A stretch of DNA of 64,000 nucleotides, taken from an uncultured bacterium (lineage in GTDB: Bacteria; UBP14; UBA6098; B30-G16). The notes beneath the pieces are model-generated. The model had not been told where the DNA came from. It ran no database searches and saw only the letters and a list, made by a program, of their open reading frames with translations. Numbering within the stretch: the first letter of the stretch is position 1; each line of letters begins with the position of its first letter. Both the position numbers and the translations under genes were made by a program. The DNA lies in the NCBI GenBank assembly GCA_965552135.1, contig CBEVQY010000011.1, positions 864 to 64,863 on the forward strand. Reading direction: 5' to 3'. This document shows positions 13,848-57,814 of this stretch, piece after piece.

Positions 13848-13854
13848 TTTCCCT

Positions 13855-24161: not shown

Positions 24162-24177
24162 TGAAATTTGGAGCAAC

Positions 24178-24252: not shown

Positions 24253-24301
24253 TTGTTTTTTTGTTTTTAGACTACTCTGCTATTACCAGGGAGGGGGTTA
24301 T

Positions 24302-25669: not shown

Positions 25670-25945
25670 TACTTCGGGTGGGCGACCGCGATTTCCCGCC
25701 ACCGGCGCCTCCGCTTGGCGCGGCGGATTTTCGCTCACAGAACATCCCGTTGTGGCCGTAGGACTCGCATTCCAACAAGCGCGTTGTGAATCGAGACAGG
25801 ATGCTTTATTATATTCGAGGGCTTTGGGCGCGAGGCAGACGACGGGGTCTTCGCGTCTTAGGACCCATTTGAGGCTTTGGCGCTGGAACTTAGACGTGTT
25901 CGCCGAACACTACGGTGGAAAAACCTTCACATCGGGAGGGTCGAG

Positions 25946-37434: not shown

Positions 37435-37538
37435 TAAGCAAGGGCAGTTGAACATAAGGGGCAGGTCATCAAAGTAATTTGTTGAGCGAAATTGGGTTGT
37501 TGAAGTTAAGGCAGGAAAGTCCAACAAAGGAGGAGCTG

Positions 37539-43500: not shown

Positions 43501-45524
43501 TTGCGTACGGTCTTGAGTTCGGTTCGACCTTCGGCGATCCCGACTGCATCGACCTGCCAAGCTACCCCTACTACCTCACCTACGGCTGCGATACGATCTG
43601 GGTTACGGCGAGCTGTCCGCAGCTTGGGCTTGTGTTGTGGGTCGACGCGCCCGGCTCGGGCTACGACGAGGGAACGTCCGCACCGTTCGATGTGGTATCG
43701 CCGCTTGACGAGAGCATCTACGCCGAGGTGTACGACAACCCCGACGATCAGGGCGATACCCTGTGGCTTGTCCACACCCGCTCGAGGAACGACCTGCTCT
43801 ACGAGGGCGCCGACATCGACACGCTGACGACCTACGTGGTCGAGTACACCTACTGGGTCGACACCGACCTCGGGCCGGATACGAACTGGGTGCAGATCTT
43901 CCCGATCTTCCAGTACGAGAGCGGCGACACGCTGTTCTTCAAGGTCACCAACTTCGGCGACTTCAACGCCTACCGCAGGAGCATAATCATCCACGGCAGG
44001 ACGAAGGGCGTGACGCCCGTTGACCTTTACTCCTCGAGGATACTCATTGAACCTGTGGCGCCTGTGGACAATGTGCCTCCTGCGGCGGTATCGGACCTCA
44101 GGATCCAGCAGTCCGGCGGCAACGCGCACCTGTGGTGGGATGAAGTTACCACTGGCGTCGACGGCTCGCCCGAGATAGCGCCTGCCGAAAACATCGTCTA
44201 CTACGTCTTCCGCAGCGTTGGCAACCCGTACGACATCTCGACGTACACCTTCCTGGGGATGACCGACGTTCCCGCCTACGACGATCCGCTGCCCGCTTCG
44301 CCTGTGGCGCAGCCAACCTACTACTTCGTCCTCGCATACGACCACAACTACAACCAGAGCGACACATCGGAGATAGTTGGTCGCACAAGCTACGAGTTCG
44401 GCGTTGGTTGGTCGCAGATAGCCGTTCCGTTCGACGTGGAGTACGGTTCCGAGCCGCTTTTGGCATCTGAGCTTGACTCGTACCTCGGCTCTGCCGGCAT
44501 CGTTGCGATGTATCGCTACCAGAGCGGTCACTGGACGCCCGCGTACATCGAGGGGTCGTTCAACAGCGTGATCTCCGAGGGCAGCGAGGCGCTCACCGTC
44601 TACGGCTTTACCGCCACAACGCTTTCGCTGTGCGGTGACCTCATGCCCGCGCCTGTGTTCTCGTTCGAGCACGGGTGGAACCAGTTCTTCCTGCCGCTCG
44701 ACAGGCTCGATATAGGTGACGCGATAGACCTTATGAACAGCATCGACGCTTCGGTTGGGTGTCTCAGCGTTGCCCACAGGATCCCCGGCGGCGGCTGGCA
44801 GCAGCTTGTTGAGATAGGCGGCGTCTACTACGGGAACTTCGACGTTTACGTTGGTCAGGCGTACATGGCTTGGGCGACCTCTGCGGGCAACTGGCCGCCC
44901 AGCAAGGGATACGGCTTTGGCTCGATCGTTCCCGCTGGTCAGCCCGCGGATGCCCTGCCGCTTCCGAAGGCTCTGGTGGGCGATATCGAGGGCGCCTGGG
45001 AGCCCGTGCACTTCAAGCTCACCACCAAGGACGGACAAGTTCTCGTGACGGACGACGATCCCGGCTGCGCCGTCTACGACGGCAAGTTCATCGTGCAGGT
45101 GGGCAACATCGACTGGAGCGTGGGCGACGAGTACGTCCTTGTGCTCTACGCCGACGGCGGCGATGCGGTTGAGATCCCTGTGGTCGTCGACGGCTCACCC
45201 GCGCAGTACCTCGGCAAGTACCACCTTGCCGATGTGGCTTTGCCCGCTGCGTTTGCGCTGTACGGCGCTCGACCCAACCCCTTCAACGCCGCCACACAGA
45301 TACGCTTCGACGTGCCCAGCGATTGCAGGGTCACCGTCGAGGTCTACGACGTGGACGGTCGCAGGGTTGCCACGCTGGTCGACGGCGCTGTTGAGGCGGG
45401 AACACATTCGGTTGTGTGGCGCGGCACCGACGACGACGGAAATGACCTGCCCGGCGGAGTCTACTTCTGCAGAATGAAGGCTGAGGGCTTCTCTGCTGTG
45501 GAGAAGATTCTGTTCGTGAAGTAG
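37539..45524 (+). CDS. Giant secreted multidomain adhesin-like protein (2661 aa) with Big_5/SbsA-like Ig repeats and T9SS type-A CTD
   Basis: An AAGGAGGAG SD precedes the ATG. The signal peptide is MRRWAFGVFVVLFVLGVAGA. It has at least four ~110 aa repeats of the form 'D.T.P.V...ATDNFSGV...YWNGTSW...D.AGN.SD'. The C-terminus is 'ARPNPFNAATQIRFDVPSDCRVTVEVYDVDGRRV...GVYFCRMKAEGFSAVEKILFVK'. Confidence 0.8.
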   Translation: MRRWAFGVFVVLFVLGVAGAGYWEDYGLRAVEYVTDPSTPTIGSQTGLLDPLTGLVWVEDWGSFPADTPRVQNDSVAGTYNGSFFYNTAVVVLGEGATGISTALGHLAVNYVFHGREDAADSLDFPGAGSGIEPWWSRTVPFYNGYFDFPTRLLVPDAAFWNRNPAISDWPSDTDEVTLEWMLWDAIYLVYSGDPFYQDEVDSIIAGIMASPWWDPTDSILLSGAPDPYLTSLWLILLAKYNEVYGTTSLLRTTAEGDYTPDLDYSFYRRLAEKAAEYLHTDGMNYLVTNYGSDGWRALGAKDAAEGLENYEALAFLMAFSLVHDTTNAYFTFATYVLDAGADNDDEPWGFVANIGTYAASLGPVYFPLTDNCFDGMFTILALKEYHDFVLPFDFDEADTCADWIREIAESLVVKYWADSAGRFIHDPHTLTIVPTNGIAGYSMLQVPRLEIVDVVSDLPNVGPGAPGPDYYANRGQNHTVSVTVVAHHTIASNEDTLWLYRTDCFGGPAPFTWQALPDMSPGDTVVLSFAVTEPMCVTTPANDHIQAVLNGPHTSGYSVVDDDITIEVDAPAQLNVDDVYAVADTLGVGYMEPYFTMGQLFWLAVDVTNNGDATVRDVSFDLTSSSIYGCASSFDPTYTFADVNIPAGGSATFYLPITADPDDHGVVGTDDEVFTVAASGVDMNTSGPCSVTYTDDDDSIGIVMPPSLRVIGWESWALGYTADGVPWVSADMFSEYIVWVVSDSGDYAVADSLWEYASGLDFFSGMFDNMVVVLFDIMNPSFVTVDTAAPGDTVGFDFWIWATSPIDEDTADMAFYAHFHDANVWTAPEPPTSPVVDTLLHAIAVDVTDPVVSPVAPAGSGDPWPADDTIRVTATDNFSGVAEVRGYIVRADYSQYWIPDGWGGWMWDPSYDEFAFEYDTLDNWKLEIYEPTGGYNYYIVLWAVDSAGNTSDTVRIARGSVAYLNIYDVITGLVKEVDPGEKWEADWQHFYTCSVQVYNPNSFDLTRVTIGLRSSSPWVQIWTTTNPSWEYEVNYLTVANIPAGAHVWLEFEVCEASYNFTDTLVAFLYQADPGPSGEAVGQQVVDDDAFVVVERPAMVLVESTWVDPSDAPVSVEDTNLVTQRQPFTLWVRVCRGGRDEIDSVGIAVRNGDILKCQNLSDTSVVLYHSDFTTMSVTSTDFSGSDTLWCVDLPFEYVADTTDFGNCNARLMEDAFLSGIWFVDFDNWIYDRTNVSIAQLYYDDTLAYVSVLEPPRLDIVTAGLSGYQDTYTGRFWINSWDTLLVWVEVGNLVSSCPDDGRATADSLDVYPMPLALFDASWTDIGNGIAGLDAPYLRPDTLYPGQDSMLVYKLYWDGATPVYEGYVGYVVDTVYFHDMNWASQSYPAPWLFVDTTSSGDTVWISAEMDTISKFFLFGVGIDVTKPVVDVYAPSPVMYSSWTWPDSTKMLATDNFSGVVVNSVVCQITDPAGNYWNGTSWQVSPVWLTTVHLGGDTFAYELPDVADLIYDGYYTVIARCSDVAGNESDVDTLRFLYDSTNPIAVIDIPEDSMFFNCTDWGGTIRVHAWDTVGGVYDVSGVRKVYIAIEDTVRHLWWNAATSSWDVSATWIWNEMTYAGGEIWEFSGYTPPAPSYVFRLWTFADDNVLNYDGPTDTSLFVLDCQAPHSYITDYWWTDTPPAYSYFNDTLWTSYMGDEITGYVIDTITAVDDVRLAIYSELDGMWWDDEVGAFTSDVPVWFQPDWLWSSWWSAADMPALPDTFSLGEFFPGYNLHIVDTLWWHYFWTPPASGCYTVYVRAVDDLQNYEAGSGWDTTGATEYNTWSFAYDNTGPEVLYAYRPADGEVITHLDEWWDTLWVAVLDTYPSCGAVGTNDIDSVKISIQHLMGGIPYWWNGTSWSTSWSWVDMTPTGGMLWYYYLPRIVLESGTYNVQVRAWDVFGNLKEYYYNFTIFGMTGYLTIEPLWDPVFVGEPFPVVVTALNSPGDTNTSFAYGLEFGSTFGDPDCIDLPSYPYYLTYGCDTIWVTASCPQLGLVLWVDAPGSGYDEGTSAPFDVVSPLDESIYAEVYDNPDDQGDTLWLVHTRSRNDLLYEGADIDTLTTYVVEYTYWVDTDLGPDTNWVQIFPIFQYESGDTLFFKVTNFGDFNAYRRSIIIHGRTKGVTPVDLYSSRILIEPVAPVDNVPPAAVSDLRIQQSGGNAHLWWDEVTTGVDGSPEIAPAENIVYYVFRSVGNPYDISTYTFLGMTDVPAYDDPLPASPVAQPTYYFVLAYDHNYNQSDTSEIVGRTSYEFGVGWSQIAVPFDVEYGSEPLLASELDSYLGSAGIVAMYRYQSGHWTPAYIEGSFNSVISEGSEALTVYGFTATTLSLCGDLMPAPVFSFEHGWNQFFLPLDRLDIGDAIDLMNSIDASVGCLSVAHRIPGGGWQQLVEIGGVYYGNFDVYVGQAYMAWATSAGNWPPSKGYGFGSIVPAGQPADALPLPKALVGDIEGAWEPVHFKLTTKDGQVLVTDDDPGCAVYDGKFIVQVGNIDWSVGDEYVLVLYADGGDAVEIPVVVDGSPAQYLGKYHLADVALPAAFALYGARPNPFNAATQIRFDVPSDCRVTVEVYDVDGRRVATLVDGAVEAGTHSVVWRGTDDDGNDLPGGVYFCRMKAEGFSAVEKILFVK

Positions 45525-45532
45525 AGAGTCTG

Positions 45533-45563
45533 TGAGGGGGAGGGCTTGGCGCTCTCCCCCTCA
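45533..45563 (+). terminator. Stable GC-rich hairpin (10-bp stem TGAGGGGGAG/CTCCCCCTCA, 11-nt loop) immediately after giant gene 1; possible terminator/attenuator
   Basis: Direct reading shows a perfect inverted repeat. It is followed by AAAAGC rather than a T-run, so intrinsic-terminator function is uncertain. Confidence 0.35.
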
Positions 45564-45582: not shown

Positions 45583-46230
45583 ATGAGGAAGGCGGGCTTG
45601 GCTTTGGTTTTTTCGCTGTTTGTTTTGGTTTTTGGTCAGGGTACGCCCCACACCTTCACCGGTCACGTTTTTAACGGCTGCGGCACCCCTCCTGCCCCGT
45701 CTTGCCTTACCTTCATCGCCTATGTCGAGGGGAGCGTCGATACAGTGCGCTACCCCGGCGACCCGAGGGCAACTTACTCCCCCGAGCTTGGCGGCGCGTG
45801 GACAGTTACGCTCGACGCAACGGCTCTGGAGAACGGAGACCTCTTCGTCATCGTCTTCGCCAACATTTGCAGCAGCACGGCGGGAATGGACACCGCAACG
45901 GTCGATCTCTCAGGGCCGGTTCAGGACCTTGGCACAACATATCTTTCGGCAATGGGATGCGGTGAGGGTGGCAAAAAGCCCGCCCTTTCGCTTTCCGTGA
46001 CGCCAGCGGTTTCGAAGGAGGGATTTTTGATCGAGGTTTTGGGCGAGGGATTTGTCGAGGTTGAGGCGTTCAACATTTTAGGTCAGTCTTTGGGCAAGCT
46101 TTACGTTGGAAGGTGCCCCAACGGCGCATCCTTCGTTTGGAGACCTGAGGATGTTTCCGGTGGCGTTTACTTTATCAAAGCTACGGACGGCAAAAACGTT
46201 TTAGTAAGAAAGGTTTATTTCGTTCCATAG
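45583..46230 (+). CDS. Small secreted protein = shared ~100-aa N-terminal 'QG-x-PH' module fused directly to T9SS type-A CTD (215 aa)
   Basis: An AAGGAGGG SD precedes the ATG. The signal peptide is ...LVFG|QGTPHTFTGHV. The N-module is homologous to the N-termini of the next two giant genes. The C-terminus is 'VEAFNILGQSLGKLYVG...GVYFIKATDGKNVLVRKVYFVP'. Confidence 0.75.
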   Translation: MRKAGLALVFSLFVLVFGQGTPHTFTGHVFNGCGTPPAPSCLTFIAYVEGSVDTVRYPGDPRATYSPELGGAWTVTLDATALENGDLFVIVFANICSSTAGMDTATVDLSGPVQDLGTTYLSAMGCGEGGKKPALSLSVTPAVSKEGFLIEVLGEGFVEVEAFNILGQSLGKLYVGRCPNGASFVWRPEDVSGGVYFIKATDGKNVLVRKVYFVP

Positions 46231-46259
46231 GTTTGTGACATCAAACAAAGGAGGCAGAT

Positions 46260-49200
46260 ATGCGTCGGTGTGGGATTTTTGTGTTTGCGGCTTTGTTGGT
46301 TTCCGCTCTTTGGGGTCAGGGGGTTCCCCACACCCTCTCGGGAACGATTCAGCTGCAGGAGGGGATGTATCCCGAGGCGGGGTGCCTGTACATAACTGTT
46401 TCGGTTGGAGGGGACGTTTACTACATCCCCGGCGACGGCACCTACGACTCGGAAAACGGCAGATGGGTTCTGGTCGTAAGCGATGCTATTCCGGGAACTG
46501 AGGTCGTCGTCCAGGCGATAGATAGCTGCTGGTACGAGGACGGCACGATAAACGGGATGGTGTCCGACTCCTTCACCACCGATCTCGGTCTTCTTGTGCT
46601 CAGCGAGATCGAGGGCATTCGCCCCTACCTCTACGACGTCTCCGTTTCGCCCACAACGGGATACGTCGAGGATGTGTTCAGGTTCGAGGTCACCTACGAG
46701 AGTGATCCCTGGAACCGCGCTCCCTCGTTCGTTCACCTTTACATAGACGGGAGCTACTTCACCTCCGCATCCCCCGTCGATCCCGGCGACAGTGAATACC
46801 GTGACGGAGCAGACTACTTCGTCGAGTTTTCCGGAAGCCTGATCGGCAGAGGGGAACACACCTTCTTCTTCTACACCGAGGATGAGGCTGGCTTTCCTGC
46901 CTGGAGCGAGACGCTTTCGTTTGTCGTGGCGAACCATCCGCCCGTTCTGACTTCGGCTTGGCTTGAGGTAAGCCCCGAGCCGCCGACCGAGTCCTCCACG
47001 ATAACGTGCGTTGTCGGAACCGCCACCGACAGCGAGGGCGACGCCATCTCGTTCCTGTACGAGTGGTACGTCAACGGCTCCTTGGTGGGCGTTGACACAA
47101 ACTCCATCGACGGCGACTACTTCGACAAGCACGACGAGGTCTGGTGCGTCGTCACCCCGTACGACGGTCGCGACTACGGCGATCCTGTGGAGACGGAGCA
47201 CGTGATCATCGAGAACACGCCGCCCGGACCGCCGTCCATCGCCATCGATCCGCCCAGCCCGTTCGACTTCGAGGACGTGACCGCGCTTGTCGTGGTCGAT
47301 GCCCCCGACATCGACGGCGACGCTGTTTCGTACAGCTATCAGTGGCTTTTGGACGGCGCGCCTGTGGCAACGGGAAGCGTTTTGGATAACTCGCTTACGA
47401 CCACTGGTCAGAGCTGGACGCTTGTGGTCACGCCCAACGACGGCGAAGCCGACGGCGAAAGCGCCGAGCTTGAGTTCACAGTGGGCGGACCGGTCCTTTC
47501 CGACGGATATGTGTCACCGCCGAGCGGGCATCCGGGAACGACCGTGTTTACGTACTACGTCACCTACTCCAACAGCCGCAACTATCCGCCCGGCTACGTG
47601 CTTGTGGACATAGACGGCACGACGTACAACATGTATCCCGCCGACACGAGCGACGACAACTACATCGACGGCGCGGTCTACATGTATCAGACGACGCTTT
47701 CTTTGGGCAGCCACCAGTTCCGCTTCTCGGCGGTCGACGACCACGGCGACGTCGCTGTGGGGATGGAGGACTACATCTCCGGTCCCGAGATGACCAACAC
47801 GCCGCCTGTGATCGACGAGGTTTCGATAGAGCCTTCGTCGCCCACGGTGCTTGACGTTATAACCGCCTCGGTCGTTTCGTGGCACGATGACGACGGCGAT
47901 GAGGTGACCTTCACCTACAGCTGGTACGTCAACGGCACCGAGGTTCCGGGTGCGGTTTCGGCAACGCTTACGAGCGACTACTTCTCCAAGGGCGACGAGG
48001 TTTGGTGCGTGATAACGCCGCACGATCCTTACGACGACGGCGAGCCTGTGGAGACTGACCACGTCTTCGTCGTCAACGCTGCGCCTTACGCCGAGGGCGT
48101 TTCGATCGACGTTGAGCCTGCGGGCGAGGCGACGGAGCTTTCGACGCTCGTCGCCGTCGTTTCCGGCGCAGGCGACCCCGACGACGATCCACTGTCGTTT
48201 AGCTACACCTGGTACGTCAACGGCACGCCCCTCGCCCTGCCCGGAGAGACCAACTCCATCGACGGCACCTACTTCGACAGAGGCAACGACGTCTTCGTCC
48301 AGGTTGCGATCTCCGATGGCGACACCGAGATAGTCCTCACATCGGCAACAGTTACCATCGGAAACGCCCTGCCTGTGGTGGAGGACTTCGGCATAGAGCC
48401 CGAAGAGCCCTACACCGACGACGAGCTCCGCGTCCGACTCGACTACTACGACCCCGACGGCGACAGCGTGGAGGTTCAGTACCTTTGGTATCGCAACGGC
48501 GAGTTCTACGGCGAGGATCCCACCGTTTCGCCCGAGGTTACAAGCCACTTCGACGTGTGGGTTTTGGAGGTGAGGCTGCTTGACGGCTTCGTTGAGGGCG
48601 AATATGTGTCGCTTTTCGATACCGTGGAGATACAGAACTCCCTCCCCGAGGTTGGGGATTTCGTGGATACCATAACGGTTGGCGGCGCAAGCTACGTTGG
48701 TCACCTTGAGGCGAGTGATCTTGACGGCGACCCGCTTTCGTTTGCGGTGGTTGATGGACCTTCGGGCATCCACGTTGCCGCCGACGGCGCAGTGCTGTGG
48801 AACGTGCCCGAGGTCGACACCCTAACCGCGTTCGACGTCACGATAAGGGTGAGCGACGGCTACGACTACACCGACGTAAGCTTCGTGCTTTGGGTGTATC
48901 CTCTTTGGGATCCCATCTTCGCCCCCACTGATCTTGTCGCCTCTGGTGGGCACGTTGGCGTGATACCGCTTAGCTGGAATCCGCCTGCGGCGTTCTCGGA
49001 GCTGCCTTACATGCCCATCTCGTTTGTGGGCTACGAGGTTTGGCGCGCTACGAACCCCGACCCCGAGGTCGGCGACTGGACGATGCTTGCCGAAACCTTC
49101 GTGCCCAGCTATGCCGACGTCGACGTCGAGCCGTACGAGGTTTATTACTACTACGTCGTTGCGGTTTACGATTTGGGCATAGGCGCGCCATCGAACACCG

Positions 49201-52200
49201 ACCACGCGTTCTGCGTGGAGGGCGAGCTTGTGAGCTGGTTCTCGCCGTTTACGTACACCGCTCCGCCCGTCCTCGACGGCTCCATAGACGAGGCTGAGTG
49301 GACCGACGCCATGAGCTACGCCTACAGCGTCGACGGCAGAGATTTCAAGCTCTACTTCAAGCACGACAACGGTCACCTCTACATAGCCGTTGAGTGTGTC
49401 AGCGACGAGACCCTCTCGCCCGACGATATGCTTATGGTGAGCGTCGACGACGACAACAACGATCGCTGGCCTTCCACGGGTCCGAGCAGCGAGGGCGAGT
49501 ACCGCATAAAGGCGCTTTCTTACGGCGTTGAGGTGACGTTCCAGGGCATTTGGGGCACGTTCCCCGACGATATCGTCCGCGACGTTCGCGGTCCTGCGGA
49601 GGGTCTTTGGGGCGCTGCATCAGATGCCGACGGATACGTCGTCTACGAGCTTGCGATTCCTATAGGTGATGGCGCCGCCGGCATCAACATCGATGAGCTT
49701 GGCAGGTGGGTTGGTTTGCGCGTTGCGGTTTACGACGTCGACAGCTACAGCTGGATACTTCTTCTGCCCGCGGCAAGCGATCCCGAAGATCCTTCTTCGT
49801 TCGGCGAGCTTTACCTCGAAAGCGGTGCGGCGCCTGGTGTCCTCTGCATAGAGCCCGTTGAGCTTTCGATAACCCTTCGCCAGGGCGAGTCCAGATCACT
49901 TGTGCTCAACGTTTGCAACTGCGACGCGGGATACCTGAACTACACGATTCACGAGGCTTGCGCTCCCAGCGGCGGGCTTATGAGGACGGCTTCGATGAAC
50001 ATCGTCGCCTACATTGACGACGCATCACTCGTCCCGCAGGCGCTCTCTGCCCTCGGATACACCGCAGCCATCTACACCGACCCGATGGAGTTCTATAACG
50101 CCGTTTCGTCCGGGTCGTGGGACCTTGTGATAGTCTCCGCCCTCGACGTGTCTGAGCCCGCCGTTTGGAACGCTGCCCTGGGCGCATACCTTGACGGCAG
50201 CAAGCTCCTTATCCAAACCCCTGACCTCGACGCCACCTCCGACCTGGGCGTTGTGGATATGCTGGGGCTGGGTTTGGGCGAGGACCTCGGCGACCGCGGC
50301 TGCGCCCTCACATGGGACCTGCCCGCTCACCCCTTCTTCCACATACCGATGGAGGTGCCACCCTCGGTGGAGTGCATCGAGGGCGACTACGAGGACTACG
50401 GCGACAACCTGATACCCGGCGACTATACTGTCCTCGCTTCCTTCGACCTCTATCCTTATCCGAACAACGCTGCCATCGTCTTCGATCCCGAGGCTGGCGT
50501 CGTCGTGAACTCCTTCGTCCTCTCGCCCCTCAACGACAGCGACGAGGACGGGATAATAGACGGTGTTGAGCTTTTGGTGAACGAGATCTCGGGGCTTCTC
50601 CCCTGCGAGGACGTACCTTGGCTTACGGTGAATCCTGCAGGTGGGCTCCTTTCGGCTCACGACTGCGACGAAGTCGGCGTTGTCTTCGACGCCACGGACC
50701 TCACGCCAGGACACTACTACGCATACCTCATGATCCATACCAACGATCCGACCTCCCCGATGGTTGCCGTTCCGTGCCATCTGGAGGTTGTTGAGCCCGA
50801 ACCGAGGGAGCTTGTCCTAAGCTTCCCCGACAGCGTCGTTATGGGCTGCGCTGGGGATGAGGTTGTCGTTCCGGTGTATGTTGGCAGCCTCGAGGCGATG
50901 GGGATAACGACCCTGGGCATGACTGTAAGCTGCGATCCCGCGGTGGCTCAGCCCGTGGACGTCGAGGCGATGATGGGCGAACTCACATCCATCGATGCGG
51001 GTCCGGGAACGATAACCTTCGAGATATCGTCCGAGTATCCTCTCCCCGGCGGCGGTCCTCTGGCGCTTGTGCACTTCCTCATAAACGACGTGGGCGTTGG
51101 GGTGACGACGACCCTCGGCATAAGCGGGGTCACATACAACCCCGACGCATACGTCACAGATGTCTACACCTATCCCGGCGAGCTTATGGTCACAAGCTGC
51201 GAGAGGCACTGGCGGGTCACCCTCGAGTTCCAGGTTTACGGCGAGCGTGCGGATGAGATCACCATAGGCGTTGAGCCCGGCGCCACCGACGCCTTCGACG
51301 AGGAGTGGGACGAGGAGAACGTTCCGCCCGCGGAGGGTTGGTTCGACGTCTGGAGCGATATCTCCGGCTTCGACAGCGAGCATCCGCACCTTTCGGTGGA
51401 CATAAGGGATGCCGACGCCACGGAGATACACTGGTACATCGAGACGGGCGATTCGGCTGGGAAGGTCGAGTGGAGCTTCGACGACGAGGTTGATCTTTCA
51501 AGGATGGGCAGCCTGTTCCTCTACTGCGGCGATGACGTCGTCGATATGAAGCTTGCCACCTTCTACTTCTACGGCGCTGGTCAGGATATCGAGATCGTTT
51601 ACCGCATCACCGGCGAGCAGCCGTTCACGTTCCACTTCGACGCCGGCTACACGATGTTCTCGCTGCCCCTCATGCTCGACGACTACAGCGTAAACGACCT
51701 CTTCCCCGGCAATCTCGGCTGCTGGTACTACGATAACTCCCTCAACACGTGGGTTCCCGCCGATGTCCTGCAGGTTGGCGTTGGCTACATAATCCTCTTC
51801 ACCTCGCCTGCGGAGTTCACCGTTTGGGGCACGCCCGTTGAGAGCCTGGTTCTGAACCTCTCCGCCGGCTGGAACCTGATAGGCATGGTTGCAAGCCCCG
51901 TCGACTTCTCCGACCCCGACGACGATCCCGACGGCTCGATCCTGGGCTCGCCGCAGCACGCATATTACTACGATCAGGCTGCCGGAACCTACTTGCTCAC
52001 CGACGAGCTTTTGCCGGGGGTTGGGTATTTCGTTGCTGCGCTTAACCCGTGTGTCCTCTACCTGCCGGGCTCGGGCGGTATGGGCAAGGCTTCGCCTGAG
52101 GTGAAGCCCCAGTGGACGGGCAGGGCGGTTGTCGGCGACCGCGTCCTCGAGTTTGGCGTTGGCGCCTGGGACGTGGCTCCCATACCGCCTGTGCTTCCCG

Positions 52201-52694
52201 GCGGCGAGGTGCCCAAGGCGTACTTCGCCGAAGACGGTTGGGTCCTTTCGCGGTGCATAAACCCCGACGCCAGCTGGAATCTGGTATTGGCTGAGGATGC
52301 CACGGTTCGCTTCGACGTTCCGGAGGGGGTTCAGCTCGTCGTCGACGGTGAGGCTGTGTCGGGCGAGGTTGCGCTTTCGGCCGGTGAGCACAAGCTTTAT
52401 GCCCGCGCCCTGCCTGTGGAGTTTGCGCTTGAGCGAAACGTCCCCAACCCCTTCAACGCCGCAACCGAGTTCCGCTTCGCCCTTCCGGAGGATGCAGAGG
52501 TTCGCATAGATATCTTCGACCTTGCGGGGAATCACGTTCGCACGCTCGTTCGCGGCAAGCTTGAGGCGGGGTATCACTCGGTCGTTTGGGATGGCACCGC
52601 CGACGACGGCTCCGAGGCTGGCTCTGGAGTATATCTGTGCCGCATGAAGGCGGGAGGATTTTCCGCGACCAGGAAGGTCGTTTTGGCGAGGTAG
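46260..52694 (+). CDS. Giant secreted multidomain protein (2144 aa): QG-x-PH N-module, six He_PIG/cadherin-like repeats, Fn3, CBM9-like, cohesin-like domains, T9SS type-A CTD
   Basis: An AAAGGAGG SD precedes the ATG. The signal peptide is ...ALWG|QGVPHTLSGTI. Repeats of the form 'D.DGD..SF.Y.WYVNG' occur six times. A cohesin-like segment reads 'VVPVYVGSLEAMGITTLGMTVSCDP'. The C-terminus is 'VPNPFNAATEFRFALPEDAEVRIDIFD...GVYLCRMKAGGFSATRKVVLAR'. Confidence 0.8.
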   Translation: MRRCGIFVFAALLVSALWGQGVPHTLSGTIQLQEGMYPEAGCLYITVSVGGDVYYIPGDGTYDSENGRWVLVVSDAIPGTEVVVQAIDSCWYEDGTINGMVSDSFTTDLGLLVLSEIEGIRPYLYDVSVSPTTGYVEDVFRFEVTYESDPWNRAPSFVHLYIDGSYFTSASPVDPGDSEYRDGADYFVEFSGSLIGRGEHTFFFYTEDEAGFPAWSETLSFVVANHPPVLTSAWLEVSPEPPTESSTITCVVGTATDSEGDAISFLYEWYVNGSLVGVDTNSIDGDYFDKHDEVWCVVTPYDGRDYGDPVETEHVIIENTPPGPPSIAIDPPSPFDFEDVTALVVVDAPDIDGDAVSYSYQWLLDGAPVATGSVLDNSLTTTGQSWTLVVTPNDGEADGESAELEFTVGGPVLSDGYVSPPSGHPGTTVFTYYVTYSNSRNYPPGYVLVDIDGTTYNMYPADTSDDNYIDGAVYMYQTTLSLGSHQFRFSAVDDHGDVAVGMEDYISGPEMTNTPPVIDEVSIEPSSPTVLDVITASVVSWHDDDGDEVTFTYSWYVNGTEVPGAVSATLTSDYFSKGDEVWCVITPHDPYDDGEPVETDHVFVVNAAPYAEGVSIDVEPAGEATELSTLVAVVSGAGDPDDDPLSFSYTWYVNGTPLALPGETNSIDGTYFDRGNDVFVQVAISDGDTEIVLTSATVTIGNALPVVEDFGIEPEEPYTDDELRVRLDYYDPDGDSVEVQYLWYRNGEFYGEDPTVSPEVTSHFDVWVLEVRLLDGFVEGEYVSLFDTVEIQNSLPEVGDFVDTITVGGASYVGHLEASDLDGDPLSFAVVDGPSGIHVAADGAVLWNVPEVDTLTAFDVTIRVSDGYDYTDVSFVLWVYPLWDPIFAPTDLVASGGHVGVIPLSWNPPAAFSELPYMPISFVGYEVWRATNPDPEVGDWTMLAETFVPSYADVDVEPYEVYYYYVVAVYDLGIGAPSNTDHAFCVEGELVSWFSPFTYTAPPVLDGSIDEAEWTDAMSYAYSVDGRDFKLYFKHDNGHLYIAVECVSDETLSPDDMLMVSVDDDNNDRWPSTGPSSEGEYRIKALSYGVEVTFQGIWGTFPDDIVRDVRGPAEGLWGAASDADGYVVYELAIPIGDGAAGINIDELGRWVGLRVAVYDVDSYSWILLLPAASDPEDPSSFGELYLESGAAPGVLCIEPVELSITLRQGESRSLVLNVCNCDAGYLNYTIHEACAPSGGLMRTASMNIVAYIDDASLVPQALSALGYTAAIYTDPMEFYNAVSSGSWDLVIVSALDVSEPAVWNAALGAYLDGSKLLIQTPDLDATSDLGVVDMLGLGLGEDLGDRGCALTWDLPAHPFFHIPMEVPPSVECIEGDYEDYGDNLIPGDYTVLASFDLYPYPNNAAIVFDPEAGVVVNSFVLSPLNDSDEDGIIDGVELLVNEISGLLPCEDVPWLTVNPAGGLLSAHDCDEVGVVFDATDLTPGHYYAYLMIHTNDPTSPMVAVPCHLEVVEPEPRELVLSFPDSVVMGCAGDEVVVPVYVGSLEAMGITTLGMTVSCDPAVAQPVDVEAMMGELTSIDAGPGTITFEISSEYPLPGGGPLALVHFLINDVGVGVTTTLGISGVTYNPDAYVTDVYTYPGELMVTSCERHWRVTLEFQVYGERADEITIGVEPGATDAFDEEWDEENVPPAEGWFDVWSDISGFDSEHPHLSVDIRDADATEIHWYIETGDSAGKVEWSFDDEVDLSRMGSLFLYCGDDVVDMKLATFYFYGAGQDIEIVYRITGEQPFTFHFDAGYTMFSLPLMLDDYSVNDLFPGNLGCWYYDNSLNTWVPADVLQVGVGYIILFTSPAEFTVWGTPVESLVLNLSAGWNLIGMVASPVDFSDPDDDPDGSILGSPQHAYYYDQAAGTYLLTDELLPGVGYFVAALNPCVLYLPGSGGMGKASPEVKPQWTGRAVVGDRVLEFGVGAWDVAPIPPVLPGGEVPKAYFAEDGWVLSRCINPDASWNLVLAEDATVRFDVPEGVQLVVDGEAVSGEVALSAGEHKLYARALPVEFALERNVPNPFNAATEFRFALPEDAEVRIDIFDLAGNHVRTLVRGKLEAGYHSVVWDGTADDGSEAGSGVYLCRMKAGGFSATRKVVLAR

Positions 52695-52870
52695 GCGTTT
52701 GGCTACAGGTGGCGGTGGAGCTTGAGTCTAAACGAGCCTTTGGGAAGCCTTCCTTTGCGGGTATGCGGCTTGCTTTTGTGGGTCGTATACCCGCAAAGTT
52801 TATATCGTGGCGCCTTCGTGGGCGGCGCGTGCAGTTTCGGTGGAGATAGGGAGCGTTCCAGGAGGTTAAG

Positions 52871-55800
52871 ATGAGGCGAGTTTGGTTTTTGGCGCTTTTT
52901 ATGGGGATTTTGTGTTTTGCTTTCGGTCAGGGTGAGCCGCACTCGATCGTCGGTCAGGCGGAGAACTCCGATCACACCCCCATTCCCGAAGGCTGCGGCA
53001 GGTTCGTGGCGTATCCGTATCCATCCGCCTCCGACACTGTGACGCAGGACTCCGACGGCTGCGGCTTTTCGGGAAGCGACTGGTGGGTTCAGATCGCCGA
53101 CTTCGAGCTTGAGGACGGCGATACGGTCGCCATAAGGCTCGAGAACTCGTGCAACGGCGAAACGCTCCTTGTGCTTGTGGAGGTTGATCTCTCCGTGCCC
53201 GTGCAGGACGTTGGATTGGTCACGCTTGTTCCCGGCGCGCCCGTGGTGACCGTCCTTTACCCGAACGGCGGGGAGAGCTTCGAGTTCGGCGACCCGATAG
53301 TTATCCGGTGGACTGCCTCGCCGGGGATAGCTGCGGTGAACGTTCTTTTCTCCTCCGACGGCGGCGCAGGCTGGGACACCGTCGCCCTGGGCGTCGATGC
53401 GTCGTCGGGGGAGTATTCCTGGACGGCTCCCTCCGTGGGGTCTGACGAGTGTCTGGTAAAGGTCGAGGACGCCTCCGATCCTGCGGTCTACGATGTGTCC
53501 GACGGCTTCTTCTCCATTGCGCCCGCGCCCTTTGTTGATCTTACGTCGCCTGCGGGCGGCGAGCACTACTACGTTGGCGACACGGTGACGATAAGCTGGA
53601 GCGGCGGGGGGATTTCGGGCGTCGACCTGTTCTTCTCCTCCGACGGCGGCGCGACGTGGGCTTTTGTGGACAGCGGTCTTCCACCGTCGGCATCTTACTA
53701 CTGGACCGCGCCCGATGTTGTCTCCGACAGCTGCATTATACGTGCCTGGGCAACGGACGACACAACCGTCGTCGACTACTCCGGCATCTTCTCCATCGAC
53801 ACCCTCCCCGCGGTCGACAGCATTCCGCCCGACCCCGTTGTTGACCTCGCCGCCGACTCCGTCACTTACACCGCCGTGCTCCTGTCGTGGACCCTCACCG
53901 GCGACGACGGAGTCGTGGGAACGCCTTCGTCGGTGGATCTGCGCTACAGCACGTCGTACATAACCGAGCTTGGTTGGCCTTACTGCACGCCGGTTTCCGG
54001 CTTGCCGCCCGTGGATACCGCCGGCACCCGCCAGAGCGTTTGGGTGGACGGGCTTTTGCCCGGTCAAACGTACTTTTTCGCGATGAAGGTCTGCGACGAG
54101 GTCCCCAACTGCAGCGACCTTTCGAACGTCGTCGAGGTGACGCTCCCAACTCCGCCCGATACGACGCCTCCTGGGGCTTTCGAGCTTTCTGTCTCCGAAG
54201 TTGGTTGCGATAGGGCAACAATAAGCTGGGTTGCCCCCGGCGACGACGGCGACGAGGGCACCGCCGACCACTACGAATTCAGATACGCCGACTTCGAGCT
54301 TACCGCCGAAAACTTCGACTCGGGCGAGGTTGTTTCGGACGTTCCCGAGCCGCAGCCTGCGGGCACGGAGCAGAGCATCGTCATCTTTGGACTTGCGGCA
54401 TCGACGCACTATTGGGTTGCGGCGTACGCCTACGACGAGGAGGGGAACCGCTCTCCGCTTGCTGTGGTTGACTTTACGACGGGCGTTTGCGCCGACACGA
54501 TCCCGCCGGCTGCCATAACGACCCTCACGTGCAGCGACTTCAAGCCCACGGGGATACAGCTTGAGTGGATGGCGCCGGGGGACGACTTCTTCTCCGGCAC
54601 AGCCGCGGCGTACGAGGTCAGGTACTCCACCGAGCCGTTCGACGAGGAGACCTGGGTTTACGCCGACTCATACGCCCTTGCAATGCTCCCGAGCCCCGCG
54701 GGTACGCTGGAGCACGCGTGGGTTGAGGGTCTTGAGCCGGCAACTACGTATTATTTCGCCGTGTTCGCCTTCGACGAGGCAGGCAACAGGTCCCATCCTG
54801 GGATCGTCGTCGACTGCGTTACGATGGGGGTCTCTTCGCCCGTCGCGGACGTGTACACAACCGAGGATGCCTCCGATATGTTCCTCGCCGACCTCGCCGA
54901 TGTCTTCGTTCCCGGCGGGCTTGACTACTCCATCGCAAGCGGCGAGGGCGTGACGGCTTACCTGCCCGATAGCGAAGGAACCGAGGTCTGGCTCTCGCTC
55001 GAACCCGATTACAACGGCGAAACCTTCGTCATCCTCTACGCGAGCCACCTTGGCTACATCGTTGCCGACACAGTGTTGGTCCACGTTGCGCCGGTGAACG
55101 ATGCGCCGCGGTTTACCTGCGGCGTTCCCGAGTCGGTCGCTGTGCCCGGCGTCGACTTCGACTTCGTCTTCACCGCGGAGGACGTCGACGGCGATTCGAT
55201 CTGGTTCGTGCTCGCCGAAGGCGCACCGGGGATGTCACTCGCCCCAACGGGCTCCCTCCACTGGATACCTCCCGCAACCGAGGGACACTACGACGTCACC
55301 GTCTTCGTCACCGATGGGGTGGACACCGCCTACCTCGGCTTCCCCGTGAGGGTGTACAAGCTTACCGACTCGATCTTCGCCCCGCGGAACCTCGTGGCGC
55401 ACTCGGGCTACCTGGGCGCGATACCCCTCACCTGGGACGTCCCCGAGGCGGTCATTCTGGGGTTCCCCGTCCACCTGGTCGGATACCAGGTGTATCGCAG
55501 CGCGTACCCCGACTCGGAGCCCGTCTTCATCGCCTCAAGCGACGTAAACGTCTACAACGACGCATCCGTCACGTGTGGGTATGTTGAGTACTATCGGGTG
55601 AAGGCGGTTTACGACGAGCCTTCGTTCGTAAGCGCGTACTCCAACACAGACGGCGGCGCCTGCGATTACACATCCGATCGCATATACTCCTCGTGGACGC
55701 TGGAGCCTGTGCTCGTCGACGGCTCCATCGACGACGAGGCGTGGAGCAGTGCCACCGTCTTCCAGCTCGAGGACGGCTACACCCTCGGGTTCGTCAACAC

Positions 55801-57814
55801 CGCAAGCTACCTTTATGGGTTTGTTGAGTTTACCTCGGCGCCCGAGGATAGCCTTGAGTTCTCCTTCTGGTTCGACGACGACAACTCGGGCTTCTGGGAC
55901 GGCATCCCCTCCGACGAGGGCAGGATATTCTTCCGCTTTGGCGACACGGTACGCGCGTACTTCCAGCCTGTGGCGAACGTTGGCGGCGTTGCCGCGAGGG
56001 GGACGCCGACCCCTATGAGCCAAGCCACGTCGGCTTGGGCGATTGTGGGAAGCCACGCTGTGCTTGAGTACGCAATCCCCCTCGGCGACGACCAGCACTT
56101 CGGGTGCCTGCCGGGGGACTCCTCTGGCGTGATGTTTGAGGCGGAAAGCCCGAGCGTGGGGGTTTTGTTCCGCTGGCTGCCCACCTCGGACGAGCTTGCG
56201 CCAGCGACCTACGGCAGGCTCATCCTTGGATCTCCGAGCGGCGTGCCGTCTATCATAGTGGCGCCGCTTGAGTTCGAGGTCGAGCTCGAGCAGGGAACGT
56301 GGACGCAGGTTACCACCTACGCCCAGAACATGGGCGAGGGAACGGGATTTATCGCCCTCTCCAGCGCGCCGGGGTGGATATCTGTAAGCCCCGAGGAGGA
56401 GTTCCTCTACCCGGGAGTTGCCACGCCCATAAACGTAGTGATCTCCGCCGACATGGAACCGGGCGACTACATCGGCTACGTCAATTTCTACACGACGGAC
56501 CCCGTTGAGCCGCTGCGGCAGGTTGAGGTTATCCTTCACGTCACGCCCGTTGAGCCCGAAAACCACCTGATCATCTCACTTCCTGAGGTCGTTTACGCCT
56601 CTGCCGACAGCGACGTCGTCGTTCCGGTCGAGGTGGGTGAGCTCTACGATAACCTCATCACCCGCGTTCGCTTCACCGTTTTGTGCGATCCCGATGTCGT
56701 TTTGCCCGTTGGTGCTTTTGCAGGGGGCGTTTTGCCGGGCGACTGGAGCGTGGATGTGACCTCGGCGGGCGAGGATCACATAACGGTCGACGTCCACGGC
56801 ATCGAGCCTTTGCCCGCGCCGGGAGAGATCGTGAAGCTTCGCTTCTCTGTCTCACCGAGCGCTTTCCGGGGCGCGGCATCTCCGCTTGAGTTCTCGGAGC
56901 CCGTGGTCAACGACGGCTTCCCGTATCCCACCACGCAGAACGGCTTGCTCGTCGTGGGCGAGGACGTCGTTCCGTACTGGTCGGCGATGGTGACGCTCGT
57001 TCTTCCCGGCGGCGTTCGCGCCGACTCCGCATCGTTCGGCGTGCACCCGCTCGGCACCGATGGATATGATCTTGCTATCGACCGCCTCGATCCGCCAGCG
57101 CTCCCCGACGGCGCCAATGTCTTCTTCCTCGCAAGCGATTACTACCACCTCCAGCGCGATATCCGCAGCGCCGAAGACACCGTCGTAACGTTCCCGCTTG
57201 TGACGGAGCAGGCGGGATACATCGAGTGGGACGTTAACCGCGTCTGGAGCGGCTGCTATGTGGGAGACACCCTCGATATGAAGACCGTATCGTCGGTGGC
57301 GGTGAGCGCCGGCGATACCGTTGTCATCTACTACCACCGCAGCGTGCCCTTCAGGTTCGTTGTGCACCTCCTCCGCGGCTGGAACATGGTTTCGATACCC
57401 ATTGCAGGCGATGCGTTCGAGCTCTCCGAAGTCTTCCCCGACGCCATACCACCCGCATATTACTACGACCCCGAGGCTGAAACGTACGTCCCCACGACGA
57501 CGCTTGAGCCGGGGAAGGGATACTGGGTTCTCATAAACGAGGACCACGACTACGAGCTTTCGGGCGAGCCACTGCTTCGGTACGAGCTTGAGCTTCCCCC
57601 CGGCTGGTACATGATCGGTGCGCCCGCCGAGGCGGTCTATTGGTCGGAGCAGAGCATAGAACCGCCCGACGCATTCCTCGAGGGAACCCTTTTCGGACAC
57701 ATAACCTCGCCGCCGTCGTACTATGTGGCGGATGTCCTCGTTCCCGGAGAGGCGTTCTGGGTGCTTTTGCTGCGAAGCTGCACCGTAAGCGTTTCGGCGA
57801 TATACTCACACTAA
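52871..57814 (+). CDS. Giant secreted multidomain protein (1647 aa): QG-x-PH N-module, Asp-box (SxDGGxTW) repeats, 3x Fn3, He_PIG, CBM9-like, cohesin-like; no recognizable T9SS CTD
   Basis: A CAGGAGG SD precedes the ATG. The signal peptide is ...CFAFG|QGEPHSIVGQA. It has 2 repeats with 'FSSDGGAGW/FSSDGGATW'. Fn3 modules read 'TPPGAFELSVSEV...'. A cohesin-like segment reads 'VVVPVEVGELYDNLITRVRFTVLCDP'. It ends '...SAIYSH' without a PNPFN or basic tail. Confidence 0.75.
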   Translation: MRRVWFLALFMGILCFAFGQGEPHSIVGQAENSDHTPIPEGCGRFVAYPYPSASDTVTQDSDGCGFSGSDWWVQIADFELEDGDTVAIRLENSCNGETLLVLVEVDLSVPVQDVGLVTLVPGAPVVTVLYPNGGESFEFGDPIVIRWTASPGIAAVNVLFSSDGGAGWDTVALGVDASSGEYSWTAPSVGSDECLVKVEDASDPAVYDVSDGFFSIAPAPFVDLTSPAGGEHYYVGDTVTISWSGGGISGVDLFFSSDGGATWAFVDSGLPPSASYYWTAPDVVSDSCIIRAWATDDTTVVDYSGIFSIDTLPAVDSIPPDPVVDLAADSVTYTAVLLSWTLTGDDGVVGTPSSVDLRYSTSYITELGWPYCTPVSGLPPVDTAGTRQSVWVDGLLPGQTYFFAMKVCDEVPNCSDLSNVVEVTLPTPPDTTPPGAFELSVSEVGCDRATISWVAPGDDGDEGTADHYEFRYADFELTAENFDSGEVVSDVPEPQPAGTEQSIVIFGLAASTHYWVAAYAYDEEGNRSPLAVVDFTTGVCADTIPPAAITTLTCSDFKPTGIQLEWMAPGDDFFSGTAAAYEVRYSTEPFDEETWVYADSYALAMLPSPAGTLEHAWVEGLEPATTYYFAVFAFDEAGNRSHPGIVVDCVTMGVSSPVADVYTTEDASDMFLADLADVFVPGGLDYSIASGEGVTAYLPDSEGTEVWLSLEPDYNGETFVILYASHLGYIVADTVLVHVAPVNDAPRFTCGVPESVAVPGVDFDFVFTAEDVDGDSIWFVLAEGAPGMSLAPTGSLHWIPPATEGHYDVTVFVTDGVDTAYLGFPVRVYKLTDSIFAPRNLVAHSGYLGAIPLTWDVPEAVILGFPVHLVGYQVYRSAYPDSEPVFIASSDVNVYNDASVTCGYVEYYRVKAVYDEPSFVSAYSNTDGGACDYTSDRIYSSWTLEPVLVDGSIDDEAWSSATVFQLEDGYTLGFVNTASYLYGFVEFTSAPEDSLEFSFWFDDDNSGFWDGIPSDEGRIFFRFGDTVRAYFQPVANVGGVAARGTPTPMSQATSAWAIVGSHAVLEYAIPLGDDQHFGCLPGDSSGVMFEAESPSVGVLFRWLPTSDELAPATYGRLILGSPSGVPSIIVAPLEFEVELEQGTWTQVTTYAQNMGEGTGFIALSSAPGWISVSPEEEFLYPGVATPINVVISADMEPGDYIGYVNFYTTDPVEPLRQVEVILHVTPVEPENHLIISLPEVVYASADSDVVVPVEVGELYDNLITRVRFTVLCDPDVVLPVGAFAGGVLPGDWSVDVTSAGEDHITVDVHGIEPLPAPGEIVKLRFSVSPSAFRGAASPLEFSEPVVNDGFPYPTTQNGLLVVGEDVVPYWSAMVTLVLPGGVRADSASFGVHPLGTDGYDLAIDRLDPPALPDGANVFFLASDYYHLQRDIRSAEDTVVTFPLVTEQAGYIEWDVNRVWSGCYVGDTLDMKTVSSVAVSAGDTVVIYYHRSVPFRFVVHLLRGWNMVSIPIAGDAFELSEVFPDAIPPAYYYDPEAETYVPTTTLEPGKGYWVLINEDHDYELSGEPLLRYELELPPGWYMIGAPAEAVYWSEQSIEPPDAFLEGTLFGHITSPPSYYVADVLVPGEAFWVLLLRSCTVSVSAIYSH

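Follow-up and report, generated by a model that had tools for sequence, protein, structure and literature searches.

A transthyretin-like module marks a conserved cluster of exported, T9SS CTD-bearing surface proteins in uncultured sediment bacteria

The window, i.e., the whole 64-kb stretch of DNA analysed here, carries on its forward strand a series of genes for very large secreted proteins, interrupted by a single small gene. We refer to the first gene of this cluster as giant1, to the small one as gene A, and to the two giants that follow as genes B and C. The genes and their features are located as follows.

37479..45524, + strand: giant1, 2681 aa, secreted; opens the conserved cluster
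44961..45230, + strand: divergent internal module copy of giant1, matched by a richer-profile HMM, directly before the CTD
45267-45521, + strand: CTD of giant1 (FlgD_ig/Por_Secre_tail)
45533..45563, + strand: hairpin in the giant1-A spacer, GC-rich, 13-bp, without U-tract (dG -33.3 kcal/mol, z -3.26)
45583..46230, + strand: gene A, 215 aa (stop at 46228-46230)
45583-45636, + strand: predicted signal peptide of gene A, MRKAGLALVFSLFVLVFG, then QGTPHTFTGHV
45637..45954, + strand: module of gene A, mature residues QGTPH...LSAM
45955-45984, + strand: linker of gene A
45985-46227, + strand: CTD of gene A
46260..52694, + strand: gene B, 2144 aa
46260-46316, + strand: predicted signal peptide of gene B, ...ALWG, then QGVPHTLSGTI
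46317..46610, + strand: module of gene B, from the three-way alignment and profile match
52437-52691, + strand: CTD of gene B
52753..52798, + strand: terminator-like hairpin after gene B, 20-bp stem with T-rich tail
52871..57814, + strand: gene C, 1647 aa
52871-52927, + strand: predicted signal peptide of gene C, ...AFG, then QGEPHSIVGQA
52928..53236, + strand: module of gene C, with the C23/C78 pair and a third, lone Cys (DGCGF)

Comparison of the mature N-termini of genes A, B and C (45583-46230, 46260-52694 and 52871-57814), which begin exactly as read in the original prediction, revealed a homologous module of ~100 aa directly after the signal peptide in all three. BLASTP on the mature modules matched A to C with E=4e-14 over 104 aa and A to B with 3e-6 over 59 aa; B and C matched at 0.039 only, and their link is therefore transitive. 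The three-way alignment contains 17 invariant columns, including C23, C78, G9 and G67, and the similarity spans the whole mature module rather than the signal peptide region alone. A profile built from the three copies recovered these and none besides in a six-frame translation of the window, and an exhaustive HMMER search of 1.84 billion representative proteins gave 58 matches at E<=1e-3, of which ~50 are true relatives; P0011, P0020, P0022, P0024, P0037, P0039, P0042 and P0056 were set aside as repeated partial profile matches to unrelated or very distant repeats. About 25 of the relatives are small, at 176-236 aa including two truncated fragments, and consist of the module and a T9SS CTD, while the remaining ones are mostly giants of which the module forms the mature N-terminus. 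One distant member of the family is labelled candidate division Zixibacteria. Members are called 'hypothetical protein' in the databases, and no Pfam or NCBIfam model matches any of the 48 module sequences on which the family-wide alignments, Pfam tests and residue counts are based, in agreement with the claim that the module is unnamed; nor did any PDB sequence match the module profile below E=0.05. A word-indexed protein search returned no match for the gene A module and P0025 only for the 48-sequence profile, and the module alignment (A5) matched no genome contig, although the long alignment of gene C did find related loci. Taken as a family with the fold and distribution described here, the module is with high confidence a real new domain family.

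In ~44 divergent proteins, the predicted cleavage of the signal peptide falls 0-1 residues from where the module begins, and the motif specific to the module is G-x-P-H at the mature N-terminus; H5, G9, W55 and G67 are nearly invariant in the 48-sequence alignment. The module was first described for three genes, and the three N-terminal copies stand, but a fourth, divergent copy lies in giant1 at 44961-45230. The alignment of this pre-CTD region (A8) matches the N-module profile (A3) with an hhalign probability of 98.3% (E 2.3e-14), so that none of the four cluster genes is without a module; with the CTD alignment as control the probability was 0.2%, and the idea that the module is a diverged CTD was rejected on this basis. 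This kinship is seen at the profile level only, since BLASTP of gene A against the C-terminus of giant1 returned nothing but the CTD match. In the giant1 copy the C23/C78 pair is absent and one lone Cys remains (PGCAVY). A strictly N-terminal location, as first supposed, does not hold either: the module also directly precedes the CTD in P0051, as in giant1, and internal copies occur in P0027, P0047, P0048 and P0052, of which the first three lack G-x-P-H and reside in proteins of other lineages with dockerin-like tails. In P0058, also from another lineage, an N-terminal module is combined with a C-terminal transmembrane anchor.

Structure prediction and fold comparison, both suggested along with the original prediction, point to a transthyretin-like rather than an Ig topology: in the single-domain AlphaFold model (pLDDT 93.3), the ~100 residues form a transthyretin/prealbumin-like beta-sandwich of eight strands, superposable with prealbumin-like sandwiches of seven to eight strands. 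Foldseek searches of the PDB with the module yielded weak generic Ig matches only, and those with the full-length gene A model yielded two-domain Ig proteins (Fabs, CD4), which are uninformative for the CTD. The module matches known transthyretin-like domains (CarboxypepD_reg-like PF13620; Ole e 1, SlaB, CnaB-type) in fold class only: transthyretin-related Pfam models hit 0/48 sequences at E<=0.1, therefore it is no member of these named families, from which its N-terminal G-x-P-H, covarying Cys pair, W55 and G67 set it apart. Unlike CnaB-type pilin domains, it shows no isopeptide-type Lys/Asn pattern, with no conserved first-strand Lys in the 48-sequence alignment and no LPXTG sortase signal, the anchors being T9SS CTDs. 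Thioester or isopeptide chemistry and an N-terminal metal brace, all considered from motifs, were dropped: there is no conserved Lys, the Cys pair does not covary with H5, and thioester domains have a different fold. As for the cysteines, C23 and C78 are both present in 40 of the 48 members, both absent in the other eight and never found singly; because they come and go together, the module most likely holds one internal disulfide.

By inspection, the predicted Sec signal peptides of A, B and C show a hydrophobic core and a small residue at -1 (G|Q), and AlphaFold places a helix at residues 3-16 of gene A; giant1 begins with a signal/anchor-like N-terminus (MRRWAFGVFVVLFVLGVAGA). At least eight genes of the window end in a CTD; none of the T9SS machinery (SprA, PorK-N, PorU/V/Z) is encoded within these 64 kb. 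The CTD of giant1 scores 43.9 against FlgD_ig (cutoff 27), and that of gene B 50.5 against the same model and 26.0 against TIGR04183 (cutoff 23); gene B also has a near-threshold cohesin match (22.7 bits, cutoff 24.1). Gene C continues after its module with Big_7 and fn3 domains, and no CTD is found in it or in its orthologues, which end at the same place. In Bacteroidetes, Gln at +1 after signal peptidase I cleavage, cyclised to pyroglutamate, is known as the Q-rule (PMC5837995). Likewise, Q directly follows the predicted cleavage site not only in A, B and C but in three further secreted proteins of the window (genes at 4902, 27948 and, with an internal start, 24161). Within the family, Q occupies module position 1 in 30/48 members, and a Cys-less branch starts A|GTPH, with no Q. 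The Gln, originally counted as part of the module motif, therefore belongs to the organism's signal peptides in general, as fits the Q-rule, and is no feature of the module. Pyroglutamate is a plausible prediction for the module N-termini, and exported proteins are more stable with it according to PMC10653852.

Gene A was described at the outset as essentially the module fused to a T9SS type-A CTD, and its layout bears this out: the AlphaFold model (pLDDT 89.8 for the full-length two-domain protein) consists of the signal helix, the 8-strand module (23-122), a disordered linker (125-130) and a 7-strand domain (135-213). The window copy has a degenerate PNPFN motif in its CTD, and its TIGR04183 score of 16.8 bits stays below the cutoff of 23. 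Gene A aligns over its full length with 22 small relatives, and among the 23 full-length small relatives, which share 21-40% identity, all have signal peptide, module and CTD, and 23/23 match TIGR04183 at E<=0.01 (best 1.3e-12). In a neighbour-joining tree the small proteins mostly cluster together and apart from the B-type giants, with a few falling among C-type or other giant-borne modules. This grouping and the fixed synteny described below imply that gene A is no recent truncation; judged from these comparisons, the small gene represents a conserved paralogue of long standing that is maintained and not decaying.

The order of a giant, the small gene, giant B and C recurs across ~10 metagenomic loci. 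A giant1 with both pre-CTD copy and CTD, followed by the small gene and an N-module giant, is found in the window and in loci L003, L004, L006, L011, L012 and L013; the order is partly seen in L001, L005 and L010, and in L005 no N-module giant follows the small gene. The spacer between A and B measures 29 nt only, contains AAGGAGG and is free of hairpins, because of which A and B are probably co-transcribed. Overall, the spacer between the small gene and B is 13-65 nt and hairpin-free in 4/6 loci, being longer in L006 and L010. Strong hairpins follow both giant1 and B: the one in the giant1-A spacer has an equivalent in 8/9 related loci, and canonical terminators lie at the same place after B in L004, L006 and L009. 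No Rfam family matched positions 37000-58200. In uncultured sediment bacteria, the module is the signature of a conserved cluster for Sec-exported cell-surface proteins with T9SS CTDs.

As to what the module does, we infer an anchoring or recognition role, as did the original prediction, by which the cluster proteins probably dock with one another or bind a shared target, and tentatively put forward a protein-protein docking module that would gather the cluster products at the cell surface, an explanation that we favour over a ligand-binding tip. Once exported through the T9SS, freed of their CTD and anchored via lipid/LPS, the copies of A and giant1 would come to lie on the outer membrane as a base that could bind the N-terminal copies of B and C. 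Both giants would thereby be held by their N-termini, and C, with no CTD of its own, would gain an anchor. The product of the small gene would then be a stalk-less, surface-anchored docking partner and no degenerate giant. Consistent with this are the presence of the module in all four cluster genes, two of whose copies adjoin a CTD anchor, its placement at the predicted cleavage site in so many divergent proteins, and the retention of the N-module by C and its orthologues despite their missing CTD. The recurrence of the giant1-small-N-module giant order although the small proteins are only ~21-40% identical, the maintenance of the small gene, most of whose products group in the tree, and the short hairpin-free spacers before B, set between hairpins after giant1 and B, argue in the same direction. 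Yet a second anchor is superfluous for B, which carries a CTD itself, L005 has a small gene with no N-module giant behind it, and docking leaves unexplained how C crosses the outer membrane. Transthyretin-like sandwiches are, moreover, very often plain structural or ligand-binding domains, and the internal copies without G-x-P-H on the dockerin-tailed P0027, P0047 and P0048 do not fit readily. The N-module opposite a C-terminal anchor, as in P0058, fits a distal tip equally well.

Such a distal, ligand-binding (adhesive) tip is a possible but rather doubtful alternative: the giants would be fibrillar and C-terminally anchored, with the N-module binding a polymer, a particle or another cell, and the small protein would, with the same reserve, be the same binding domain shown without a stalk. 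This predicts neither a strictly syntenic, probably co-transcribed stalk-less paralogue nor a copy buried beside the CTD of the 2681-aa giant1, and it leaves the CTD-less C unanchored. The module matches no ligand-binding family and evolves no faster than the rest of the protein (~58% identity between C and P0002 by manual count, versus 52% for the whole protein), which is atypical for adhesive tips.

A purely structural or secretion-competence domain seems improbable to us. Here, the module would cap the chain end, with a predicted pyroglutamate, and would assume an Ig-like role beside the CTD, A being a minimal cargo or secretion cassette that possibly coats the surface in abundance or competes for the secretion machinery. 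A beta-sandwich does stand directly before the CTD in A and giant1, a contact between CTD and preceding domain is required for secretion in P. gingivalis (PMC11285876), and the organism's general use of Q at +1 would suit the stabilising effect of pyroglutamate noted in PMC10653852. In B and C, however, the module lies ~1500-2000 residues from the C-terminus, where it can have no role as neighbour of a CTD. The near-invariant, surface-type H5, G9, W55 and G67, the strict N-terminal G-x-P-H and the conserved arrangement of four genes all speak for a more specific role than that of a generic spacer.

A more specific form of the docking explanation, which we hold to be quite improbable, starts from the lone conserved Cys found in the giant1 base copy in 7/9 distinct loci and in 5/6 C-type N-modules (related loci and window), as well as in most other C-type family members. 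Homotypic docking on a T9SS-anchored base would here be completed by an intermolecular disulfide between the lone cysteines that tethers C, possibly allowing piggy-back export; if true, this would be a way, previously undescribed, for a protein lacking the CTD to be displayed on a T9SS cell surface. Gene A itself may also represent the ancestral cassette of the giants, or a decoy. That it is a remnant with no function of its own, either a recent internal-deletion derivative or a mis-called giant fragment, would fit its having B's two terminal parts (N-module and CTD), its degenerate PNPFN and its low TIGR04183 score, but seems effectively refuted by conservation and synteny, i.e., by the complete architecture of 23 divergent full-length relatives, their grouping for the most part apart from B-type giants, the small gene's fixed position in ~10 loci and the confident two-domain model.

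Among known systems, the T9SS cargo proteins RgpB and HBP35 carry an Ig-like domain before the CTD, a cargo layout set out in PMC11285876, and for P. gingivalis that paper, with its reference 27, states that the CTD contact with the preceding domain is required for secretion and that Ig-like domains stabilise the cargo. A and giant1 likewise combine a beta-sandwich, a short flexible linker and a 7-strand CTD, but the module also occurs at the far N-terminus of giants, and its topology is transthyretin-like, not Ig. With fibrillar adhesins bearing Por_Secre_tail/CHU_C anchors (PMC8286594), the giants share stalk-type repeats (fn3, Big_7), a C-terminal anchor, present in B and not in C, and, at the other end, a domain of a separate kind. 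Unlike in those adhesins, this domain fits none of the known adhesive families, it has a base-located copy and is accompanied by a conserved paralogue without a stalk, and C has no recognisable anchor. The resemblance is thus architectural only.

Whatever its function, a new family with a confident fold, a G-x-P-H motif and a covarying Cys pair makes this cluster recognisable in metagenomes. The T9SS cargo of uncultured FCB-type bacteria includes many giants with unannotated parts. Cohesin-dockerin scaffoldin clusters also encode small anchored and very large proteins, which assemble at the cell surface through complementary docking modules. The analogy concerns how such a system works: our module is unrelated in sequence to cohesin or dockerin, and the docking hypothesised here would take place between homologous modules. 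If it does, the cluster would encode an ordered surface assembly of several T9SS substrates, one of them CTD-less, and to our knowledge nothing comparable has been described for T9SS; if the module is instead a plain binding or structural sandwich, it provides a useful, ordinary annotation. Compared with what is established, it is a new domain family within a known kind of system.

Three consecutive genes of the window encode proteins that share a module of about 100 residues at the mature N-terminus:

45583-46230, +, gene A, 215 aa
46260-52694, +, gene B, 2144 aa
52871-57814, +, gene C, 1647 aa

Each has a typical signal peptide with a small residue at its end, and the mature chains start with QGTPHTFTGHV (A), QGVPHTLSGTI (B) and QGEPHSIVGQA (C). 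The shared module of the original prediction was borne out: the likeness runs for about 100 residues past the signal peptide and is not confined to it, as the mature modules alone still match in BLASTP (A versus C, E=4e-14, 38/104 identical; A versus B, E=3e-6). B and C match each other directly at E=0.039 only, and are thus related via A. The alignment of the three has 17 invariant columns, a profile built from them picks out these three copies only when the window is translated in all six frames, and their likeness far exceeds chance.

The N-terminal Gln, on the other hand, turned out not to be a hallmark of the module. It directly follows the predicted cleavage site (slash) in other proteins of the window (VFS/QQ at 4902, GEA/QL at 27948, LFA/QP in 24161), occupies +1 after six of the eight recognisable signal peptides (4902, 24161, 27948, 45583, 46260, 52871), and is missing from a Cys-less branch of the family that starts A/GTPH; it therefore belongs to the signal peptides of this organism. 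This matches the Q-rule, which is typical of Bacteroidetes and patchy in other FCB lineages (PMC5837995). Pyroglutamate formation at the putative N-terminal Gln is plausible. The module-specific motif is G-x-P-H, found at the very beginning of the mature chain and missing from internal copies of the module.

AlphaFold2, given the three window modules as sole input, predicts an eight-stranded fold (mean pLDDT 93.3, pTM 0.84). Foldseek matches are weak, and the proposed comparison with CarbopepD_reg/transthyretin-like domains stands at the fold level but not at the family level. In a 48-sequence alignment H5, G9, W55 and G67 are near-invariant, and C23 and C78 are jointly present in 40 sequences, jointly missing in eight and never single, which argues for an internal disulfide between them.

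A HMMER search of 1.84 billion representative proteins with the three-sequence profile gave 58 matches at E<=1e-3 (16 at E<=1e-10); eight multi-repeat proteins with partial profile matches only were left out of the family. With domains re-mapped, the module starts within the first ~45 residues, right behind the signal peptide, in ~44 proteins; two matches are N-terminally truncated fragments and four (P0027, P0047, P0048, P0052) carry internal copies only. Two architectures dominate. The small proteins, ~25 in number and 176-236 aa long (two are truncated fragments, and the 23 full-length ones have 204-236 aa), are composed of signal peptide, module and type IX secretion (T9SS) C-terminal sorting domain (CTD). 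The others are giants (1100-2400 aa) whose mature N-terminus is the module; 14 of these giants are complete and end in a CTD (11), in a transmembrane helix (one) or in neither (two). As originally predicted, the module is unnamed: no Pfam or NCBIfam model covers it in A, B or C, comparison of the 48 module sequences with Pfam yields nothing related at E<=0.1, and their profile has no match among PDB sequences. Source names read "hypothetical protein [bacterium]" or recognise the CTD alone; for one distant member the label is candidate division Zixibacteria.

The 48-sequence profile reveals a fourth, divergent copy in the giant gene upstream of A:

37479-45524, giant1, 2681 aa
44961-45230, divergent module copy in giant1

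This copy lies immediately N-terminal of the CTD, and giant1 orthologues carry one at the equivalent place. When the N-terminal modules were compared, profile to profile, with six of these pre-CTD segments, the probability was 98.3% (E 2.3e-14), versus 0.2% for a control with the CTD alignment, so that each gene of the four-gene cluster carries the module. The placement at the extreme mature N-terminus thus holds for A, B and C, but neither for giant1 nor for the four proteins with internal copies. Module, linker and CTD follow one another in A just as they do in the final ~200 residues of giant1. The AlphaFold model of full-length A (pLDDT 89.8) comprises a signal helix, the module (23-122), a disordered linker (125-130) and a seven-strand C-terminal sandwich (135-213), in agreement with the seven-strand CTD architecture of T9SS cargo (PMC11285876). 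The CTD of A scores below the TIGR04183 cutoff (16.8 versus 23), while TIGR04183 is matched by 23/23 and PF18962 by 21/23 of its full-length small relatives; together with the model, these matches support the reading of A as essentially module plus CTD.

At least eight genes of the 64-kb window encode a T9SS-type CTD (FlgD_ig, Por_Secre_tail or CHU_C) at their 3' end, namely 13522-16314, 24161-25669, 25877-27931, 27948-30536, 37479-45524, 45583-46230, 46260-52694 and 58066-63951(-); no T9SS machinery genes were found in the window. The otherwise unrelated secreted proteins of 24161-25669 and 27948-30536 have CTDs 70% identical over 80 aa, a similarity that suggests recent exchange or conversion; both genes lie at 24-30 kb, where GC is 0.51-0.55 versus about 0.60 elsewhere. 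The 1961-aa product of 58066-63951(-) matches SprB repeat, Big_5 and CHU_C CTD models and has no signal peptide at its listed start, so that the true start may lie past the window end or be mis-set.

The cluster recurs, in whole or in part, in about ten metagenomic loci (numbered with L). On a 118-kb JGI contig (L004), PurS, PurQ (36404-37102 in the window) and DUF4321 precede, in this order, giants of 2613, 2343 and >1877 aa, with a small gene of 214 aa between the first and the second giant. The order giant1 (pre-CTD copy and CTD), small gene, gene with signal peptide and module is found in the window, L003, L004, L006, L011, L012 and L013, and in partial view in L001, L005 and L010; B is followed by a C-type giant in the window, L004, L006 and L009. 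The sole interruption of the L006 small gene is a run of N. The small proteins share just 21-40% identity, which makes the arrangement old. Neighbour joining places the B-type modules in a single clade and most small-protein modules in a cluster apart from the B-type giants; the C-type modules split in two, interspersed with a few small proteins and other giants. This grouping rules out an origin of A by recent truncation.

Two hairpins punctuate the cluster:

45533-45563, giant1-A spacer hairpin, dG -33.3 kcal/mol, z -3.26
52753-52798, terminator-type hairpin 3' of B, 20-bp stem, T-rich tail

The first type is strong, GC-rich and without U-tract, and occurs in eight of nine loci (window, L001, L003, L004, L005, L006, L011, L013) as a perfect 10-16 bp stem with a purine-rich 5' arm past the giant1 stop codon. 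Stem sequences differ from locus to locus, and Rfam has no family for it; a possible role is attenuation or mRNA stabilisation, which would set the ratio of giant1 to the small gene. The hairpin past B, with its T-rich tail, is present in 4/4 loci (window, L004, L006, L009). In four of six loci the spacer between small gene and B is 13-65 nt long, contains a Shine-Dalgarno sequence and lacks a hairpin; it is longer in L006 (147 nt) and in L010 (211 nt). Taken together, these signals suggest that A and B form a single transcription unit, and C looks like a unit of its own.

Neither Pfam nor a family-built profile detects a CTD in C. Its orthologues (L006 12190-17178, L007 3-4895, L008 45-5090) likewise have a signal peptide and no T9SS CTD, and share with C (C-terminus at 57692-57811) and P0002, a family member, the same end, ...S-x-IYL-[HN]-P; P0045 and other C-type proteins have a CTD. 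C may carry an unrecognised sorting signal for leaving the periplasm. Across the modules of L004-L013 and the window, a third, lone Cys (G-C-x-[YFV]), without partner inside the domain, is found in most C-type modules (5/6) and in 7/9 distinct giant1 pre-CTD copies, which lack the C23/C78 pair, and in none of the B-type modules or window-type small proteins:

53054-53068, DGCGF (lone Cys) in C
45096-45113, PGCAVY (lone Cys) in giant1

This pattern may bear on how the module works: giant1 and C could conceivably be joined by an intermolecular disulfide.

An unnamed repeat of ~75-80 aa (GWN[LM][IV]..P ... Y.YD ... L.PG.GYW), without Pfam match, is located towards the C-terminus of each of the three giants:

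about 44406-44680, giant1 aa ~2310-2400
about 51645-52110, B aa 1796-1950
about 57377-57811, C aa 1503-1647

It forms the C-terminus of CTD-less proteins, and recurs in P0054 and in the 297-aa P0049, as the sole content of the latter besides the module. B also has a near-threshold cohesin match (22.7 bits, cutoff 24.1; 50847-51164, aa 1530-1635), weaker in C, and the distant P0027, P0047 and P0048, whose module copies are internal, terminate in dockerin-like D-x-D-G-D-V-D-G-S-D repeats, which hints at a possible cohesin-dockerin-style assembly among these proteins.

The domain, its fold class, its distribution and positions, and the synteny are established by these results; what the module does we infer, and we tentatively favour a docking role, in which the CTD-adjacent copies of A and giant1, beside the anchor, would bind those at the N-termini of B and C. 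Docking would explain why the small gene is conserved and coupled to B, why giant1 has a base copy and why C survives without a CTD. The main rival, which we consider somewhat less likely, is a ligand-binding tip at the distal end of fibrils that are anchored C-terminally, as is usual for fibrillar adhesins (PMC8286594). Such a tip would suit a module that lies N-terminally and is combined with further kinds of anchor, but it predicts neither the small gene nor the base copy. A purely structural or secretion-competence role would suit CTD-adjacent copies (PMC11285876) but not those 1500-2000 residues off, and seems improbable. The module family, from uncultured organisms, provides a solid, reusable annotation along with a testable assembly hypothesis. 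In layout, the cluster proteins are ordinary T9SS-type cargo, and the module folds, and would work, like the transthyretin-like sandwiches of surface proteins, yet its sequence matches none of the named families checked; new are the domain family itself, its strict mature N-terminal placement, its recurrence in every gene of a conserved four-gene cluster, and a conserved stand-alone module-CTD protein.
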